A stretch of 64,000 nt of DNA. It comes from Alphaproteobacteria bacterium (lineage in GTDB: Bacteria > Pseudomonadota > Alphaproteobacteria > Sphingomonadales > Sphingomonadaceae). Position numbers and translations under genes: made by a program. Each line of letters starts with the position of its first letter. Within the stretch, counting starts at the first letter, position 1. The DNA is taken from contig JAUIIG010000001.1 in NCBI GenBank assembly GCA_030431875.1, positions 37,539-101,538 on the forward strand, written 5' to 3'. This document shows, in pieces, positions 8,521-13,411 of the stretch. The notes under the pieces were generated by a model. The model was given only the letters and a program-made list of their open reading frames with translations, searched no databases and was not told where the DNA came from.

Positions 8521-9210
8521 ATGGCTTATCCCGAATCCGAAGGCGCACGCGTCAACCGCAGCCGGTACTGGCTGATGTTCTTCGTCACCATGGTGGCGAG
8601 CATCGTGCTGATCGGCGTCAGCATTGGCGCCTTTGCCAATGGCAGCATCGGGCTGGGCATCATCGCCTTCCTGCTGATCGCGCCGCTCAACATCTATTTC
8701 CGCGTCATCATGATGCGTCGCTGCCGCGACATCGGCTGGGCACCCGCCTTGCCGTGGATCACCTTCGGGCTGGGCATCGTCGCCAGCGTGTTCAGCTTTG
8801 GCAGCATGGCCACGCTTGATCCGACCATAATCCTTGGCGGATCGGGCTTTTCCATGCTGGTTTCGCTGGCTGATCTGGTGCTGATGATCGCCTTGGGCAG
8901 CGTGCGGGGCAAGCCGCAGATGGACTATCGCGAGGTCTTCGACGGATACGACCGCCAGCCCGCACCGCAGCAGCGTACCGGGCCGCGTCCTGCAGCGGGC
9001 TTCAGCACGTCGCAGCCGGGGGCGGCAACAGGCGACGCAACCAGCAGCGGGGACGCGATGGACGATGCGATCGCCCGCGCGCTGGAAAACTACAAGCGCA
9101 CCGGCTCCGCCGTGCCCGAGCAGGCGACTGCTGCACCCTCGCCAGTGCGGCAGAGAGCACAGCAGGCCGCGCCTGCGCGGGTAGCCGGGTTTGGGCGGAA
9201 GATGGTCTGA
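8521..9210 (+). CDS. DUF805-family membrane protein with a disordered C-terminal tail
   Basis: GRxNRxxYW-like start, RRCRDIGW (variant of RRxHDxG); tail ends GFGRKMV. Confidence 0.8.
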   Translation: MAYPESEGARVNRSRYWLMFFVTMVASIVLIGVSIGAFANGSIGLGIIAFLLIAPLNIYFRVIMMRRCRDIGWAPALPWITFGLGIVASVFSFGSMATLDPTIILGGSGFSMLVSLADLVLMIALGSVRGKPQMDYREVFDGYDRQPAPQQRTGPRPAAGFSTSQPGAATGDATSSGDAMDDAIARALENYKRTGSAVPEQATAAPSPVRQRAQQAAPARVAGFGRKMV

Positions 9211-9229: not shown

Positions 9230-9820
9230 TCAGGCAGGTTCCTGCGGAGGCTCGTTCCTGAACGAGAAGAAATGCAACTCGACATCGCCCAGAGTTATGA
9301 CGTCCTGGTGCGACAGCCCTGTTTTTTCGCCAATCTCCGTCCCGTTCACGAATACCGGGTTGGTCGGGTTGAGCGGTAGCAGCAGGACCTTGTCCTCCGC
9401 GGCATGCAGGATGCAGTGCTCGCGCGAAACGTAAGGACTGGTCAGGATAACGTCGCAACTCGCGCTTCGCCCGATCAGCAGGTTGGCATTGTCGCGAACC
9501 CAGATCTTGGCCTTGTAGTCTTCGTCCTGCTTGTCAGCGTAGTAGAGAAAGCCAATCGCGGTTTCCTTGGCGACCTCGTTGATGAAATCGCGTGCCGCCT
9601 CCTCGCTCGTCTGACGCAACGTGGCGTACTTGTAGGCCACCTCCAGCTTCTGTTCGGACAGTGCCCGCACCTGCTCACTGCGGTACTTTTCAAGGTCGAG
9701 CTCTATCTGGCGCAAGTGGGCAATATTCTGCCGTCTTGCCGCAAAGAAGGCGACACCCGCCGTGATACTGCTCGCCAGCAATGCCACCAGGGCCGTGGTG
9801 AGAGTGGCATCCTCAGCCAC
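9230..9820 (-). CDS. TM helix, coiled coil and FHA domain protein
   Basis: GTG at 9820 overlaps the trpS stop; GR, SREH and NPVFVNG FHA motifs. Confidence 0.8.
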   Translation of the reverse strand: MAEDATLTTALVALLASSITAGVAFFAARRQNIAHLRQIELDLEKYRSEQVRALSEQKLEVAYKYATLRQTSEEAARDFINEVAKETAIGFLYYADKQDEDYKAKIWVRDNANLLIGRSASCDVILTSPYVSREHCILHAAEDKVLLLPLNPTNPVFVNGTEIGEKTGLSHQDVITLGDVELHFFSFRNEPPQEPA

Positions 9821-10832
9821 GAACCAGCCCCAGCGCCTTGTAGGCGGCATCCAGCGTCGGCGTGCCCTGCTCGCGGGCCTGTGCAGCACCGCGCGCAAGG
9901 ATGGCGTCGAGCTGTTCGCGATCATCCTTCAGTTCCACGAACCGGTCGCGGATCGGGCTGAGGACCGACACCATCAGCTCTGCCAGGGCCGGCTTGAACT
10001 GGCCGAAGCCCGCGCCGCCATGGTCTGCGAGCACCTGCTCTGCCGTGGTTTCTGCCAGCGCGGCATAGATGCTGACGAGGTTCAGCGCCTCGGGCCGCTC
10101 TGCCAGCCCCGCGACTTCGCTGGGCAGCGGTTCGGGATCGGTCTTCGCCTTCTTCACCTTTTGCGCCATGGTGTCGGCATCGTCGGTCAGCGAGATGCGG
10201 CTCATGTCAGACGGGTCCGACTTGGACATCTTCTTGCTGCCGTCGCGCAGGCTCATGATGCGGGCGGCGGTTTCCGGGATGAAGGGATCGGGCAGGGTGA
10301 AGACCGGGTCCTCTTCCGAAGCGAAGTCGTTGTTGAACTTCTGCGCAATGTCGCGCGCCAGCTCGAGGTGTTGCTTCTGGTCATCGCCCACGGGCACGTG
10401 GGTGGCCTGGTACAGCAGCACGTCGGCGGCTTGCAGCACGGGATAGCTGAACAGCGCGGCGGACTGGCCTTCGCGGTTCTTGCCCGCCTTGTCCTTCCAT
10501 TGCGTCATGCGGTTGAGCCAGCCCATGCGCGCCGTGCCCATAAGCAGCCATTGCAGCTCTGCATGGGCGGGCACTTGCGCCTGGTTGAACAGCACGGTCT
10601 TGCTCGGGTCGAGCCCGCAGGCGACCAGCGTGGCAACCATTTCGAGGGTGGCGGCGTGCAGTTCCGCCGGGTTGTGTGGCATGCTGATGGCATGGAGGTC
10701 CGCCAGGAAGATGAGGCACTTGCCATTGTTGGCAACGGCTTCGTCCTGCAGTTTCACATAATTCTTGATCGCACCCAGGTAGTTGCCAAGGTGCGGCTTG
10801 CCGGTGGGCTGGATTCCGGAAACGACGATCAT
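9813..10832 (-). CDS. trpS: Tryptophan--tRNA ligase
   Basis: SGIQPTG.PHLGNY (HIGH), VPVGDDQKQH, KMSKS. Confidence 0.98.
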   Translation of the reverse strand: MIVVSGIQPTGKPHLGNYLGAIKNYVKLQDEAVANNGKCLIFLADLHAISMPHNPAELHAATLEMVATLVACGLDPSKTVLFNQAQVPAHAELQWLLMGTARMGWLNRMTQWKDKAGKNREGQSAALFSYPVLQAADVLLYQATHVPVGDDQKQHLELARDIAQKFNNDFASEEDPVFTLPDPFIPETAARIMSLRDGSKKMSKSDPSDMSRISLTDDADTMAQKVKKAKTDPEPLPSEVAGLAERPEALNLVSIYAALAETTAEQVLADHGGAGFGQFKPALAELMVSVLSPIRDRFVELKDDREQLDAILARGAAQAREQGTPTLDAAYKALGLVRG

Positions 10833-10893
10833 CGGATAGGTCTTTCAAATGCAATGGCTGGCAGGCCCGTGGCGCTGCCGGGAACAGGTCGGG

Positions 10894-10983
10894 TCAGGCG
10901 CGGCCCAGCCATCGCCAGGCCGCCCGCCCGCGCACTGCGAAACGCAGCGGAGCCGAACCGGTCGAGGGAGTCATTGCAGTCAT
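10894..10983 (-). CDS. Trp-containing leader peptide MTAMTPSTGSAPLRFAVRGRAAWRWLGRA (trpL-like)
   Basis: Translated by hand; TGG CGA TGG near the 3' end; stop lies 61 nt upstream of trpS; alternative ATG at 10974. Confidence 0.6.
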   Translation of the reverse strand: MTAMTPSTGSAPLRFAVRGRAAWRWLGRA

Positions 10984-10991
10984 CGCCGTGC

Positions 10992-11019
10992 CGCTTAGCA
11001 CAAGCGGGCGGATGGGCAA
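10992..11019 (-). promoter_or_regulatory. Sigma70-type promoter directly upstream of the leader ATG (possibly leaderless start)
   Basis: Minus strand TTGCCC-N16-TAAGCG (GCTAAG), with ATG 8 nt downstream. Confidence 0.45.
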
Positions 11020-11024
11020 GGTGC

Positions 11025-12617
11025 TCAGGCGCTCGGCACGCGCTTGCGGGTGAAGGCCTTGAGCCGGTCGCGGCTGACCGCGCCGATGGCGAAGGCGACG
11101 CCGAAATAGACCGCCATGGCGCCTGCCACGAGCACGCCGACAGCCAGCAACTGGACCATCAGGTTGAGGTCATAGACGTATTCCAGCAGGTCGCGCCCGT
11201 ACCACAGCGCAGCACCCATGGCGGCAGCAGCCAGCAGTTGCCGCACCAGTCGCCCGATCAGCGGCCAGTCCATCGCGTAGTGCCCGCGCACGCGCAGCAC
11301 CACGTAGAGGATCAGGCAGTTGAGCCATGCCCCGATCACGCTGGCAGCGGCGACACCTTCCACGCCGAAGCGATGGAGGAAGGCGAGGTTGAAACCGACG
11401 AACACGGCCAATGCCGCAAAGGCCGCATAGACCGGTGTGCGGGTATCCGAACGGGCATAGAAGCTGGGCACCAGCACCTTTACCAGCACGTAAGCGGGCA
11501 AGCCGCCGACCAGCACCGCCAGCACGCCGCCGGTCATCGCCGCGTCGGCAGCATCGAACCGGCCACCGCCGAAGATCACGGTGATGAAAGGCACGGCACA
11601 TACGGCCAGTGCCACGGCGGCAGGAAGGGTCAGCAACATGCCCAGCTCGATGGCGTTCGATTGCACGCGGGCGGCGCCGTCCTTGTCCTTCGCGCCGACG
11701 AACTTGGACAGCGTGGGCAGGATCGCGGTCGACAGGGCAATGCCGATGATCCCCAGCGGCAACTGGTTCAACCGGTCGGCATAGTTCATCCAGCTGACCG
11801 CGCTGCCCTCCAGCTGGTTGAGGAAGTAGACCTGCAGCAGGGTGTTGATCTGGTAGGCCCCGCCGCCGATGGCTGCGGGCAGGGCAATCTTGCCCAACCG
11901 CTTTACCTCGGGCGTCAGCTTCGGACGGCTGATCCAGCGCGGGCGGAATCCTTCCTTGCGCGCCCAGTAGACCAGCCATGCCAGTTGCAGCACGCCGGCC
12001 ACGGGAATGGCCCATGCCACGACATAGCCCATGGCGACGATATTGCTCTGCGCTCCATGCGACATGCTGACGCCCAGTAGGGTCACGATCAGCACAAGGT
12101 TCAGGATGACGGGGAAACTTGCGCCCGGCCCGAAACGAGAGACCGAATTGAGCATGCCGGTCAGCAGGGTCACCACGCTGACGAGCACGATGTAGGGGAA
12201 CATGATCTGCGCGAAATCGACCGAATAGTCGAACTTGGCCGGATCGATGGGTTTGTCCGACAGCAGCCAGATTACGCCCGGCATGGCGATCTCGAACACC
12301 GCGGTCAGCAGGATCAGCGCCGGGACGAAGACCGAGATCACGTCCTGCGAGAAGCTGCGCGCTTCCTCCAGCCCTTCGGCTTCGGTCTTGCCGTCCTGGT
12401 GCAGGCGGCGCGAGAACATCGGCACGAAAGCGGCCGAGAAGGCGCCCTCGGCGAACAGGCGGCGGAACACATTGGGAATGATGAAGGCCTGGAACCAGGC
12501 GTCCGTCACGTCATTCGCGCCAAGCACGCGCGAGAAGATCATCTCGCGCGCCATGCCGGCCACGCGGCTCACCATGGTGAGCGAGCCGATCGTGCCGACG
12601 TTCTTGAGCAGGCTCAT
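11025..12617 (-). CDS. murJ: Lipid II flippase MurJ (MviN)
   Basis: SRVAGMARE, PNVFRRLFAEGA, YADRLNQLPLG. Confidence 0.96.
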   Translation of the reverse strand: MSLLKNVGTIGSLTMVSRVAGMAREMIFSRVLGANDVTDAWFQAFIIPNVFRRLFAEGAFSAAFVPMFSRRLHQDGKTEAEGLEEARSFSQDVISVFVPALILLTAVFEIAMPGVIWLLSDKPIDPAKFDYSVDFAQIMFPYIVLVSVVTLLTGMLNSVSRFGPGASFPVILNLVLIVTLLGVSMSHGAQSNIVAMGYVVAWAIPVAGVLQLAWLVYWARKEGFRPRWISRPKLTPEVKRLGKIALPAAIGGGAYQINTLLQVYFLNQLEGSAVSWMNYADRLNQLPLGIIGIALSTAILPTLSKFVGAKDKDGAARVQSNAIELGMLLTLPAAVALAVCAVPFITVIFGGGRFDAADAAMTGGVLAVLVGGLPAYVLVKVLVPSFYARSDTRTPVYAAFAALAVFVGFNLAFLHRFGVEGVAAASVIGAWLNCLILYVVLRVRGHYAMDWPLIGRLVRQLLAAAAMGAALWYGRDLLEYVYDLNLMVQLLAVGVLVAGAMAVYFGVAFAIGAVSRDRLKAFTRKRVPSA

Positions 12618-12646: not shown

Positions 12647-13180
12647 TCAGCCTTCGCCGCCAGCCGGGGCCTCGGCCGCCGGAGCCGCGGCACCCTGTGC
12701 GCCCTGCGCCTGCATGCGCTGGGCGTAGAGGCCGTTGAAGTCGATCGGGTCGAGCATCAGCGGGGCAAAGCCGGCATCGCGGATGGCATCCGAAATCACG
12801 CGGCGGGCATAGGGGAACAGGATGCGCGGAGCCTCGGCATACATGAACATGTGCTGCTGGGCTTCGGCCATGTTGCGCATGCCGATCAGGCCGCAATAGG
12901 CCAGCTCGACGATATAGGCGGTGCCTGCTTCCATCTTCGAAGTGACGGTGATCTTCAGTTCGACCTCGGTCACGTCGTCGCTGGCTGGCTTGGCTCCGAT
13001 GTTGAACTGCACGTCCATCTGCGGCTTGTCGGTCCAGCGGAAGCTCTGCGGCGCGTTGGGGTTCTCGACCGAGAGGTCCTTCACGTACTGCGAGATAATG
13101 CCGGCCACCGGTGCGGTATCGCTGCCGTTGCTGCCTGCTGCGGGATCGAGGTTCTTCAGGACGTCGCCTTCGTCGGCCAT
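12647..13180 (-). CDS. secB: Protein-export chaperone SecB
   Basis: QYVKDLSVENP, ILFPYAR, LDPIDF; start at MADEGD. Confidence 0.95.
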   Translation of the reverse strand: MADEGDVLKNLDPAAGSNGSDTAPVAGIISQYVKDLSVENPNAPQSFRWTDKPQMDVQFNIGAKPASDDVTEVELKITVTSKMEAGTAYIVELAYCGLIGMRNMAEAQQHMFMYAEAPRILFPYARRVISDAIRDAGFAPLMLDPIDFNGLYAQRMQAQGAQGAAAPAAEAPAGGEG

Positions 13181-13411
13181 GGTAAAGTCGTCTTTCGTTA
13201 CTGTTTGGGCGCGGTGGACCCGCGCGGACAATTGTTGGGCGCGCGCCTATCACCCCTTGGGACGGCTAGCAATGGCATGTCGCAGAGCGGCCGATTCGCT
13301 TCATGCCTACTTAAGGCACGGTGGCGTAATCCGGTTGTTCATTTGATATTGGACACTATCTGGTTCACTATAGATGTAAGGCGTGCCTGCCGCCTGTGGT
13401 TTGCGGGCAGA

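Follow-up and report, generated by a model that had tools for sequence, protein, structure and literature searches.

A stretch of 64,000 nucleotides (nt) from an alphaproteobacterium of the Sphingomonadaceae (assembly GCA_030431875.1, contig JAUIIG010000001.1, positions 37,539 to 101,538; hereafter the window) contains, between the genes murJ and trpS on its minus strand, a 192-nt spacer (10833-11024) that is probably a leader-peptide sensor of tryptophan tRNA (tRNA-Trp) acting on trpS, the gene for tryptophanyl-tRNA synthetase (TrpRS). The spacer carries a short open reading frame (ORF) in which two Trp codons flank an Arg codon (W-R-W); it lies on the same strand as trpS, with 61 nt between its stop codon and the trpS start. 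TrpS of the window is 89-90% identical to the TrpS of Aurantiacibacter poecillastricola and A. gilvus, and the organism appears to be close to Aurantiacibacter. An initial annotation of this DNA had proposed a Trp-sensing leader upstream of trpS, and the comparative test supports that proposal, with in-frame Trp-Arg-Trp found wherever the long spacer occurs. The sensor side of the element, namely the promoter, the ORF and W-CGA-W, is well supported by conservation. We infer the start of transcription, sensing, stalling, regulation and, from the logic of known systems, its direction, as we also infer the output step in the window's own leader subfamily (subfamily E, below).

Conservation of the leader reading frame

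A scan for TrpS in one genome per species yielded 80 Sphingomonadales loci, with upstream DNA present for 76. In all of these 76 loci the gene directly upstream of trpS is murJ. In 64 loci the genes overlap or are separated by 0-51 nt; in the other 12 the spacer is at least 85 nt long, and in nine of these 12 it measures 179-218 nt. Each of the nine genome loci with a spacer of about 190 nt, like that of the window, carries a short ORF with in-frame Trp codons, and alignment of the trpS upstream regions, a check that the initial annotation had suggested, finds such codons conserved wherever a spacer of this length is present. The exceptions to W-R-W are Trp-Ala-Trp in one locus (L003) and two spaced Trp codons in another (L007); an example of the leader peptides encoded at the genome loci is MQDRSIFLSLAPGSWRWHRVARVSR. 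The spacers share a layout that consists of a promoter, an ATG, an ORF of 22-34 codons, a stop codon, a GC hairpin, a G-poor spacer and the ribosome-binding site (RBS) of trpS.

Within the window, all coordinates given earlier for the ORF and its two in-frame Trp codons are correct on the minus strand. The sequence TGGCGATGG occurs four times in the window against 1.5 expected, and taken by itself the window gives mixed evidence for an origin other than chance; the comparative evidence is decisive. Since the same ORF with in-frame W-R-W recurs in relatives, the worry, voiced from the start, that two TGG codons had arisen by chance is ruled out.

The nine genome loci together with the window constitute an unbiased set of ten genome-derived leaders. 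All ten have W-x-W or W..W, and CGA is retained in all ten. A scan of metagenomes, with a pattern that comprised only TGGCGATGG, a gap of 72-102 nt and a trpS start, added 64 sphingomonad trpS loci, every one of them with the leader ORF. The TrpS of these loci are 80-97% identical to those of Erythrobacteraceae or Novosphingobium loci, save two (70% and 73%). The pattern also matched two high-GC non-sphingomonad trpS loci (L088 and L157; TrpS 44-46% identical), which were rejected as leaders because TGGCGATGG there reads Gly-Asp-Gly-Asp-Gly at the end of the upstream gene, and which provide a negative control for the pattern. About 40 human-gut matches belong to an unrelated gene family (MESLSGMQT...) and were discarded, and there were a few further matches away from trpS.

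The reading frame was tested without assuming one, by taking the first ATG located 8-17 nt after TGnTA. The Trp codons share their frame with this ATG in 61 of 61 distinct leaders, at 11 different distances ranging from 33 to 81 nt, and a stop codon always follows 9-39 nt past the first Trp codon. Preservation of the frame in every leader across so many distances strongly indicates selection on the ORF as such. Translation of the ORF receives indirect support from this frame conservation and from the ribosome footprints on the Caulobacter leader (PMC4117421, below). A search for public RNA sequencing runs retrieved only DNA metagenomes and metatranscriptomes with 4% of the words, too few to be of use. 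The frame result bears directly on the possibility that the ORF is unrelated to Trp sensing, and either encodes an Arg/Trp-rich functional peptide or is an open frame that arose incidentally where the conserved nucleotides act as RNA or DNA, for instance as a promoter or as a 5' untranslated region that is structured or binds a protein. Open frames are cheap in DNA of 65% GC, the stretch CGG GCG GCC TGG CGA TGG is almost without synonymous variation, which indicates that selection acts partly on nucleotides, and the leader peptide peTrpL of Sinorhizobium acts in trans (PMC7298713). Such an explanation is nevertheless improbable in view of the preserved frame and the ever-present nearby stop, the poor conservation of the remaining peptide, the occurrence of the cassette only immediately upstream of trpS, and the established existence of cognate-codon leaders before the matching synthetase gene (pheM-pheST; Streptomyces trpS, PMC1262725).

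The leaders can be classified into four subfamilies by their peptides: subfamily E, to which the window belongs (..RFAVRGRAAWRWLGxA); subfamily P (MxRxAxLxRKxPRLxARGRAAWRWP..); subfamily T (MDRTAxLERTA..GRAAWRWRx); and subfamily N, from Novosphingobium (MQDxS...SWRWR...R). Only the initial Met, the two Trp (W23 and W25 in the window) and the intervening Arg are invariant or nearly so across the four; apart from the Met, the two Trp are the only strictly invariant residues. Beyond W-R-W the peptides diverge among subfamilies, which fits a codon sensor rather than a folded peptide. The codons CGG GCG GCC that precede the first Trp show almost no synonymous change and, because they form the 5' strand of a hairpin (H1 in Table 1), this implies a constraint at the RNA level additional to coding. 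The CGA between the Trp codons, at 10912-10914 in the window and at the same position in loci L003 to L045, is the rarest Arg codon locally (one of 43 Arg codons in trpS and murJ). Its conservation may mean either that slow decoding is part of the sensor or that the GA is needed for pairing with CCAUC/CCAUU.

The same comparison speaks to a TnaC-like arrest peptide, in which the nascent chain, while in the exit tunnel, would respond to free tryptophan or to an inhibitor of TrpRS and stall the ribosome at a fixed point, with tRNA charging irrelevant. In favour of an arrest peptide, three of the four subfamilies retain RGRAAWRW as a peptide sequence, but the distance from W-R-W to the stop codon varies between 9 and 39 nt, and the Novosphingobium subfamily shows no conservation of the residues that precede W-R-W. 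Moreover, induction of trpS by excess tryptophan makes little physiological sense, and RNA pairing accounts for the conserved codons before the first Trp. We consider an arrest peptide highly improbable.

Ahead of the ORF lies the promoter-like element noticed in the initial annotation. Its -35 and extended -10 boxes are conserved in 55 distinct leaders aligned on the -10 box, though not with an E. coli consensus. In these leaders the two boxes are separated by 16 nt, and the T, G, T, G, T and A of the -10 box are each invariant or at least 87% conserved. The distance from the -10 hexamer (GCTAAG type) to the ATG is mostly 9-10 nt across leaders. In the window, transcription would start near 10985, within about 2 nt of the leader AUG, and the mRNA of the leader ORF would therefore be leaderless or nearly so. 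The features of the locus are collected in Table 1.

Table 1. Features of the murJ-trpS region in the window, in the order in which they are read on the minus strand
Feature	Position	Strand	Remarks
murJ (lipid II flippase), upstream gene	11025..12617	minus	Stop TGA 11027-11025; Pfam MurJ, E=4e-100
Candidate -35 box TTGCCC	11014..11019	minus	TT.C invariant or nearly so in 55 distinct leaders; function presumed
Candidate extended -10 box TG-n-TAAGCG	10992..11000	minus	Family consensus TTGTG(C/A)TA(T/A)G
Leader ORF, 29 codons plus stop, MTAMTPSTGSAPLRFAVRGRAAWRWLGRA	10894..10983	minus	ATG 10983-10981, TGA 10896-10894; conserved in relatives
Hairpin H1	10891..10929	minus	5' arm GGGCGGGCGGCCUGGC (codons G-R-A-A-W-R), loop GAUG, 3' arm GCUGGGCCGCGCCUGACCC
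Proposed sensor codons TGG CGA TGG (Trp-Arg-Trp)	10909..10917	minus	Trp codons 10917-10915 and 10911-10909
Long-range helix, 5' arm GCGAUGGCUGG (DNA GCGATGGCTGG)	10905..10915	minus	11 bp, one G-U
Hairpin H2, GGCAGCGCC-ACG-GGCCUGCC	10860..10879	minus	GGCAG...CTGCC; equivalent GC hairpin in 63/63 leaders
Long-range helix, 3' arm CCAGCCAUUGC (DNA CCAGCCATTGC)	10851..10861	minus	Ends 4 nt before the Shine-Dalgarno sequence
Likely trpS Shine-Dalgarno sequence GAAAGA	10841..10846	minus	GAAAGA, AAGGA or GAGG here in relatives; predicted mostly unpaired in subfamily E
trpS (tryptophanyl-tRNA synthetase), proposed regulated gene	9813..10832	minus	Pfam tRNA-synt_1b, E=6e-70

RNA pairing and the output step

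Two alternative structures can be drawn for the leader RNA of the window, namely hairpins H1 and H2 on the one hand and an 11-bp long-range helix on the other. In H1 the Trp codons lie at the tip and the stop codon is part of the 3' strand; this hairpin is found in the minimum free energy (MFE) folds of the window and of two further leaders (L008 and L012). H2, described initially as a hairpin that competes with the helix and overlaps its 3' arm, is present as described and likewise belongs to the MFE fold of the window's leader RNA. Across 63 leaders the equivalent hairpins have a mean energy of -11 kcal/mol, begin about 10 nt past the stop codon and end 27-58 nt before the trpS AUG. Their stem sequences are unrelated between lineages; A. 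gilvus encodes a peptide near-identical to that of the window, yet its H2 stem is GGGCGAG/CUUGCCC.

A GC hairpin after the stop codon in every leader is in favour of classical attenuation of the trp/pheST type, in which an intrinsic terminator, formed either by H2 or by a composite stem with the long-range helix at its base, would be blocked by stalling. In addition, a moderately U-rich tail is seen in some members of subfamily P (for example UUUCCAUCUU in L180 and AUUCCUGUUUCC in L139), AUUUG follows the 11-bp helix in the window, and a ribosome on the Trp codons would mask the 5' strand of that helix. Against this, the terminator scan found no intrinsic-terminator-like site in the spacer, and the 10 nt after H2 contain a mean of only 2.7 U in the 63 leaders; the window has 2, and most of the Novosphingobium leaders, whose tails are CA-rich, have 0-1. 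The earlier observation that a U-tract terminator is missing thus holds. No antiterminator was found in the leaders. A complement of the H2 5' arm (CCGGGCG/GGCCUGG) does recur, but it falls within the footprint of the stalled ribosome, from -9 to +2 of the first Trp codon, and would give the wrong regulatory sign. Since there is neither a U-tract nor an antiterminator, attenuation by a classical intrinsic terminator is not supported, and we give it little credence.

The 11-bp helix that the initial annotation had drawn between the Trp-codon strand and a strand upstream of trpS is present, and its 3' arm ends 18 nt before the trpS ATG (10832). A wide 5' window in RNAduplex proved too permissive and was therefore narrowed and compared with shuffles; the helix outscores all of 200 dinucleotide shuffles of the region downstream (z=-2.9). 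In several members of subfamily E the segment GAUGGCU has a partner, AGCYAUU, that lies 2-12 nt 5' of the Shine-Dalgarno sequence, and the version in the window is the longest. Family-wide, pairing of the W-R-W segment with downstream RNA has a mean z of -0.5 (E -1.0, P -0.76, T -0.2 and N 0). In the MFE fold of the window's leader RNA, 10979-10970 pairs with 10857-10850, so that CAUUGCA binds leader codons 2-4 (UGCAAUG) and not the Trp codons; the strand with this 3' motif thus has two AUG-containing partners.

In a MAFFT alignment of subfamily E the variable 3' half could not be aligned, and RNAalifold accordingly recovered no more than a small hairpin within the invariant part. Alignment folding was replaced by analyses anchored on the Trp codons and the trpS AUG, without fitting to a structure. 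In these analyses one register stands out, in which nucleotide i of W-R-W pairs with nucleotide -i of the trpS AUG. At this register at least 8 of 10 pairs form in 19 of the 63 leaders, compared with 0-3 leaders in 12 other registers; 65% of the cells are paired, compared with 26-51% in slid registers; and some covariation is seen at two variable positions. In 29 of 63 leaders the best partner that the RBS window has anywhere in the leader is the W-R-W segment, as against 18 +/- 3.8 for shuffled RBS windows (maximum 27 across 100 shuffle sets). This signal is carried by subfamilies P (13 of 19 leaders) and T (7 of 9), in which the pairing covers positions -10 to -1 of the trpS AUG. When the footprint of a stalled ribosome is modelled, the RBS is predicted to be more often unpaired, with a probability that goes from 0.37 to 0.48 in P and, in T, from 0.47 to 0.59; the overall Wilcoxon test gives p=6e-7. 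These results suggest that in P and T the Trp codons serve as an anti-RBS strand, and point to translational attenuation in these subfamilies.

In the mechanism that we propose, the conserved promoter would place the 5' end of the transcript on the leader AUG or a few bases away from it, and ribosomes would translate the 29-codon ORF with its conserved Trp-Arg(CGA)-Trp near the end. When charged tRNA-Trp is scarce, owing to low tryptophan or low TrpRS activity, the ribosome would stall at the Trp codons and keep H1 and the strand GCGAUGGCUGG open. The output would be translational attenuation, in which the Trp-codon strand pairs with the trpS initiation region and the stalled ribosome breaks this pairing; in the window the corresponding pairing sits immediately 5' of the Shine-Dalgarno sequence. 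A probable amplifier would be Rho-dependent polarity when trpS is left untranslated. The outcome would be increased expression of trpS, a homeostatic feedback on TrpRS, where the direction, with stalling raising trpS, is taken from the logic of pheST, the Streptomyces trpS attenuators and T-box trpS genes. Among the possible outputs we prefer unmasking of the trpS initiation region to Rho-dependent polarity, and the latter to intrinsic termination.

The sensor could also be the same and have Rho as its primary output, if Rho were to load on C-rich, G-poor RNA after release of the leader ribosome and terminate transcription early in trpS, and if stalling or the ensuing translation of trpS were to prevent this. 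The spacer has no U-tract terminator, and the stretch of about 37 nt between H2 and the AUG is indeed poor in G (15%) and rich in C (31%), where the spacer from stop to ATG as a whole has 23% G and 37% C and the leader ORF 34% G and 35% C. Control of Rho access by a leader ORF is established for tnaC, mgtL and corL. The free spacer, however, measures no more than 58-84 nt with its stable hairpin included, little room for Rho to load, and a ribosome stalled at W-R-W would leave the loading stretch uncovered. Rho sites, furthermore, are not reliably predictable from sequence. Overall, Rho appears unlikely as the primary output.

Several results weigh against the proposed Trp-tRNA sensor or against parts of it. 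The metagenomic set was picked by means of TGGCGATGG, and the invariance of that sequence within the set is circular. A scan for E. coli-type promoters found no match in the spacer. Shuffled sequences fold as well as the entire spacer does (z=+0.46), and the H2 region is not unusually stable (mean z=-0.4); global fold stability is uninformative in such GC-rich DNA. The 11-bp helix has an ensemble probability of about 0 in the full leader RNA, and a fold forced to hold it is 6 kcal/mol worse than the MFE fold. As to covariation of the helix, a check that the initial annotation had suggested, A. gilvus retains only a 7-bp core, in which CCAUUGC keeps its distance from the AUG, and the difference from the window is not a compensatory one. 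While the complementarity itself is present and beats shuffles, a role of the helix as the switch is weakly supported, because of this shortened core, the low family-wide z and the unfavourable thermodynamics. In subfamilies E and N the W-R-W segment is the best partner of the RBS no more often than expected from shuffles (4 of 16 and 5 of 19 leaders), and the RBS is not predicted to be masked or to respond to stalling (0.52 versus 0.53 in E). Finally, the leader is patchy, even within Aurantiacibacter, and 64 of the 76 Sphingomonadales loci have no spacer for it; the element is dispensable, because most relatives are without it.

Distribution among relatives and the surrounding genes

Within Aurantiacibacter the cassette is present in the window, A. 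gilvus and A. flavus, and also in the closest metagenomic relatives of the window; it is absent from A. poecillastricola, MUD61, A. spongiae, A. sediminis, A. luteus and D1-12. Outside the genus, Citromicrobium bathyomarinum and Novosphingobium resinovorum are among its carriers. Among the individual loci, it occupies 10833-11024 of the window and 809-1000 of L191, and is absent from L190, L192, L193, L195, L196 and L197. In the Aurantiacibacter genomes that lack the cassette, the murJ stop codon lies right against the trpS ATG or overlaps it (as in ATGA), an arrangement that points to direct translational coupling of murJ and trpS as an alternative architecture in these species. The leader subfamilies track TrpS relatedness, and the overall distribution fits an old element that has been lost repeatedly.

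Insertion of a mobile repeat was considered as an origin of the cassette and rejected, as the cassette is found only between murJ and trpS, has a conserved layout of promoter, ORF and RBS, and diverges along with TrpS. A different kind of spacer was observed in a metagenome-assembled genome of the Sphingomonadaceae (L051, 2205-2500). This murJ-trpS spacer of 296 nt contains long inverted repeats (TCGTCATTGCGAG...CTCGCAATGACGA) and no Trp-codon ORF, and may have arisen by insertion of a small mobile element or repeat at the murJ-trpS junction.

Other genes in the vicinity include a SecB gene (E=1e-50) at 12647-13231 on the minus strand, next to the murJ-trpS region, and a gene at 8521-9210 on the plus strand with a weak match to DUF805 membrane proteins. 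In related Aurantiacibacter genomes, genes for DUF4136 and DUF805 proteins flank trpS. An ORF for a protein with an FHA domain (9230-9925, minus strand), shares 113 nt with the 3' end of trpS, which is on the same strand, if its first ATG is taken as the start; the true start of this protein is probably further downstream.

Relation to known leaders and significance

By its sequence features the element belongs to the class of leader-peptide attenuators, here for an aminoacyl-tRNA synthetase gene that it would regulate. It lacks the terminator that defines the classical subclass, and RBS masking of the erm type is predicted only in the sister subfamilies. The E. coli pheM-pheST leader is a cognate-codon leader of a synthetase operon, with an intrinsic terminator and five Phe codons. 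The window leader resembles it in having a short cognate-codon ORF directly upstream of a synthetase gene and in the proposed feedback from tRNA charging, and differs in having only two Trp codons, split by a rare Arg codon, and no such terminator. In ermC and cat, a ribosome stalled on the leader by a drug and the nascent peptide occupies the helix strand that lies opposite the downstream RBS. Pairing of the stall-site strand with the RBS is common to these genes and subfamilies P and T, whereas the stall is caused by a drug in the former and would be caused by a lack of charged tRNA here; in subfamily E, that of the window, the RBS itself lies outside the helix. The T-boxes of trpS in Firmicutes, by comparison, have the same input, charging of tRNA-Trp, and the same target, but bind the tRNA directly and have no leader ORF, and neither a T-box nor any other Rfam match is found in the window.

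Trp-codon attenuators have been described for trpS of Streptomyces, with pheM-pheST cited as an analogue (Seliverstov et al. 2005, PMC1262725). There too a Trp-codon leader ORF precedes trpS and the expected logic is that stalling switches the gene on; the Streptomyces attenuators contain a GC-rich terminator, poly-U and antiterminators (PMC1262725), whereas the window leader has no U-tract and no antiterminator. Streptomyces also belongs to an unrelated phylum, and there is no sequence similarity between the leaders. In Sinorhizobium meliloti, the trpL/rnTrpL attenuator controls trpE(G) (PMC6614838, PMC7298713). It is likewise an alphaproteobacterial leader ORF with Trp codons, but it targets a biosynthetic gene, encodes a peptide of 14 amino acids with consecutive Trp codons, and has a terminator that releases a small RNA (PMC6614838, PMC7298713).

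Of particular interest is Caulobacter crescentus NA1000, in which ribosome profiling identified a small leader coding sequence on the trpS mRNA, called a putative leader peptide (Schrader et al. 2014, Fig. 2B; PMC4117421). In this alphaproteobacterium, too, mviN/murJ (CCNA_00063) is followed by a spacer, of 167 nt, and by trpS (CCNA_00062) (PMC4117421). The comparison with the window covers synteny and spacer length (167 versus 192 nt), in which the two agree, and no regulation was shown in Caulobacter (PMC4117421). The statement in the initial annotation that no such leader had been described for trpS of sphingomonads holds for the sphingomonads themselves, for which a literature search found no description of a Trp-codon trpS leader, and needs the Caulobacter leader as a footnote.

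The leader had also been taken to be unannotated, and this is borne out by the databases. No gene is called in the murJ-trpS spacer of A. gilvus; Rfam 15 gave no minus-strand match at E up to 10 in 10500-11400 and no family at its gathering score anywhere in the 64-kb window. A profile of the leader peptide (extended ORF), compared with 5.8 billion proteins, matched only five metagenomic peptides, four of them unnamed and one a 'hypothetical protein'. Annotation pipelines miss the leader ORF.

Taken further, the element may be a terminator-less, leaderless Trp-tRNA sensor that uses W-CGA-W as its anti-RBS strand, and may be part of an old alphaproteobacterial module of murJ, leader and trpS that includes the leader coding sequence of Caulobacter and has repeatedly been deleted in favour of murJ-trpS coupling. 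We advance this wider reading tentatively. If true, an essential aminoacyl-tRNA synthetase gene would be under translational attenuation by tRNA charging, a mode of control so far tied to drug-inducible resistance genes.

The principle itself is not new, as cognate-codon leaders of synthetase genes are known from pheST of E. coli and trpS of Streptomyces. To our knowledge, the regulation of aminoacyl-tRNA synthetase genes in Alphaproteobacteria, which have no T-boxes, is almost unstudied. The leader would offer a sequence-defined and testable example with about 75 natural variants. In its four subfamilies the sensor codons are alike and the output is apparently wired differently, and natural knock-outs, which lack the cassette and have trpS fused to murJ, occur inside a single genus. 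Thus, the family would provide a system in which to understand how leader-peptide sensors are built, rewired and lost.

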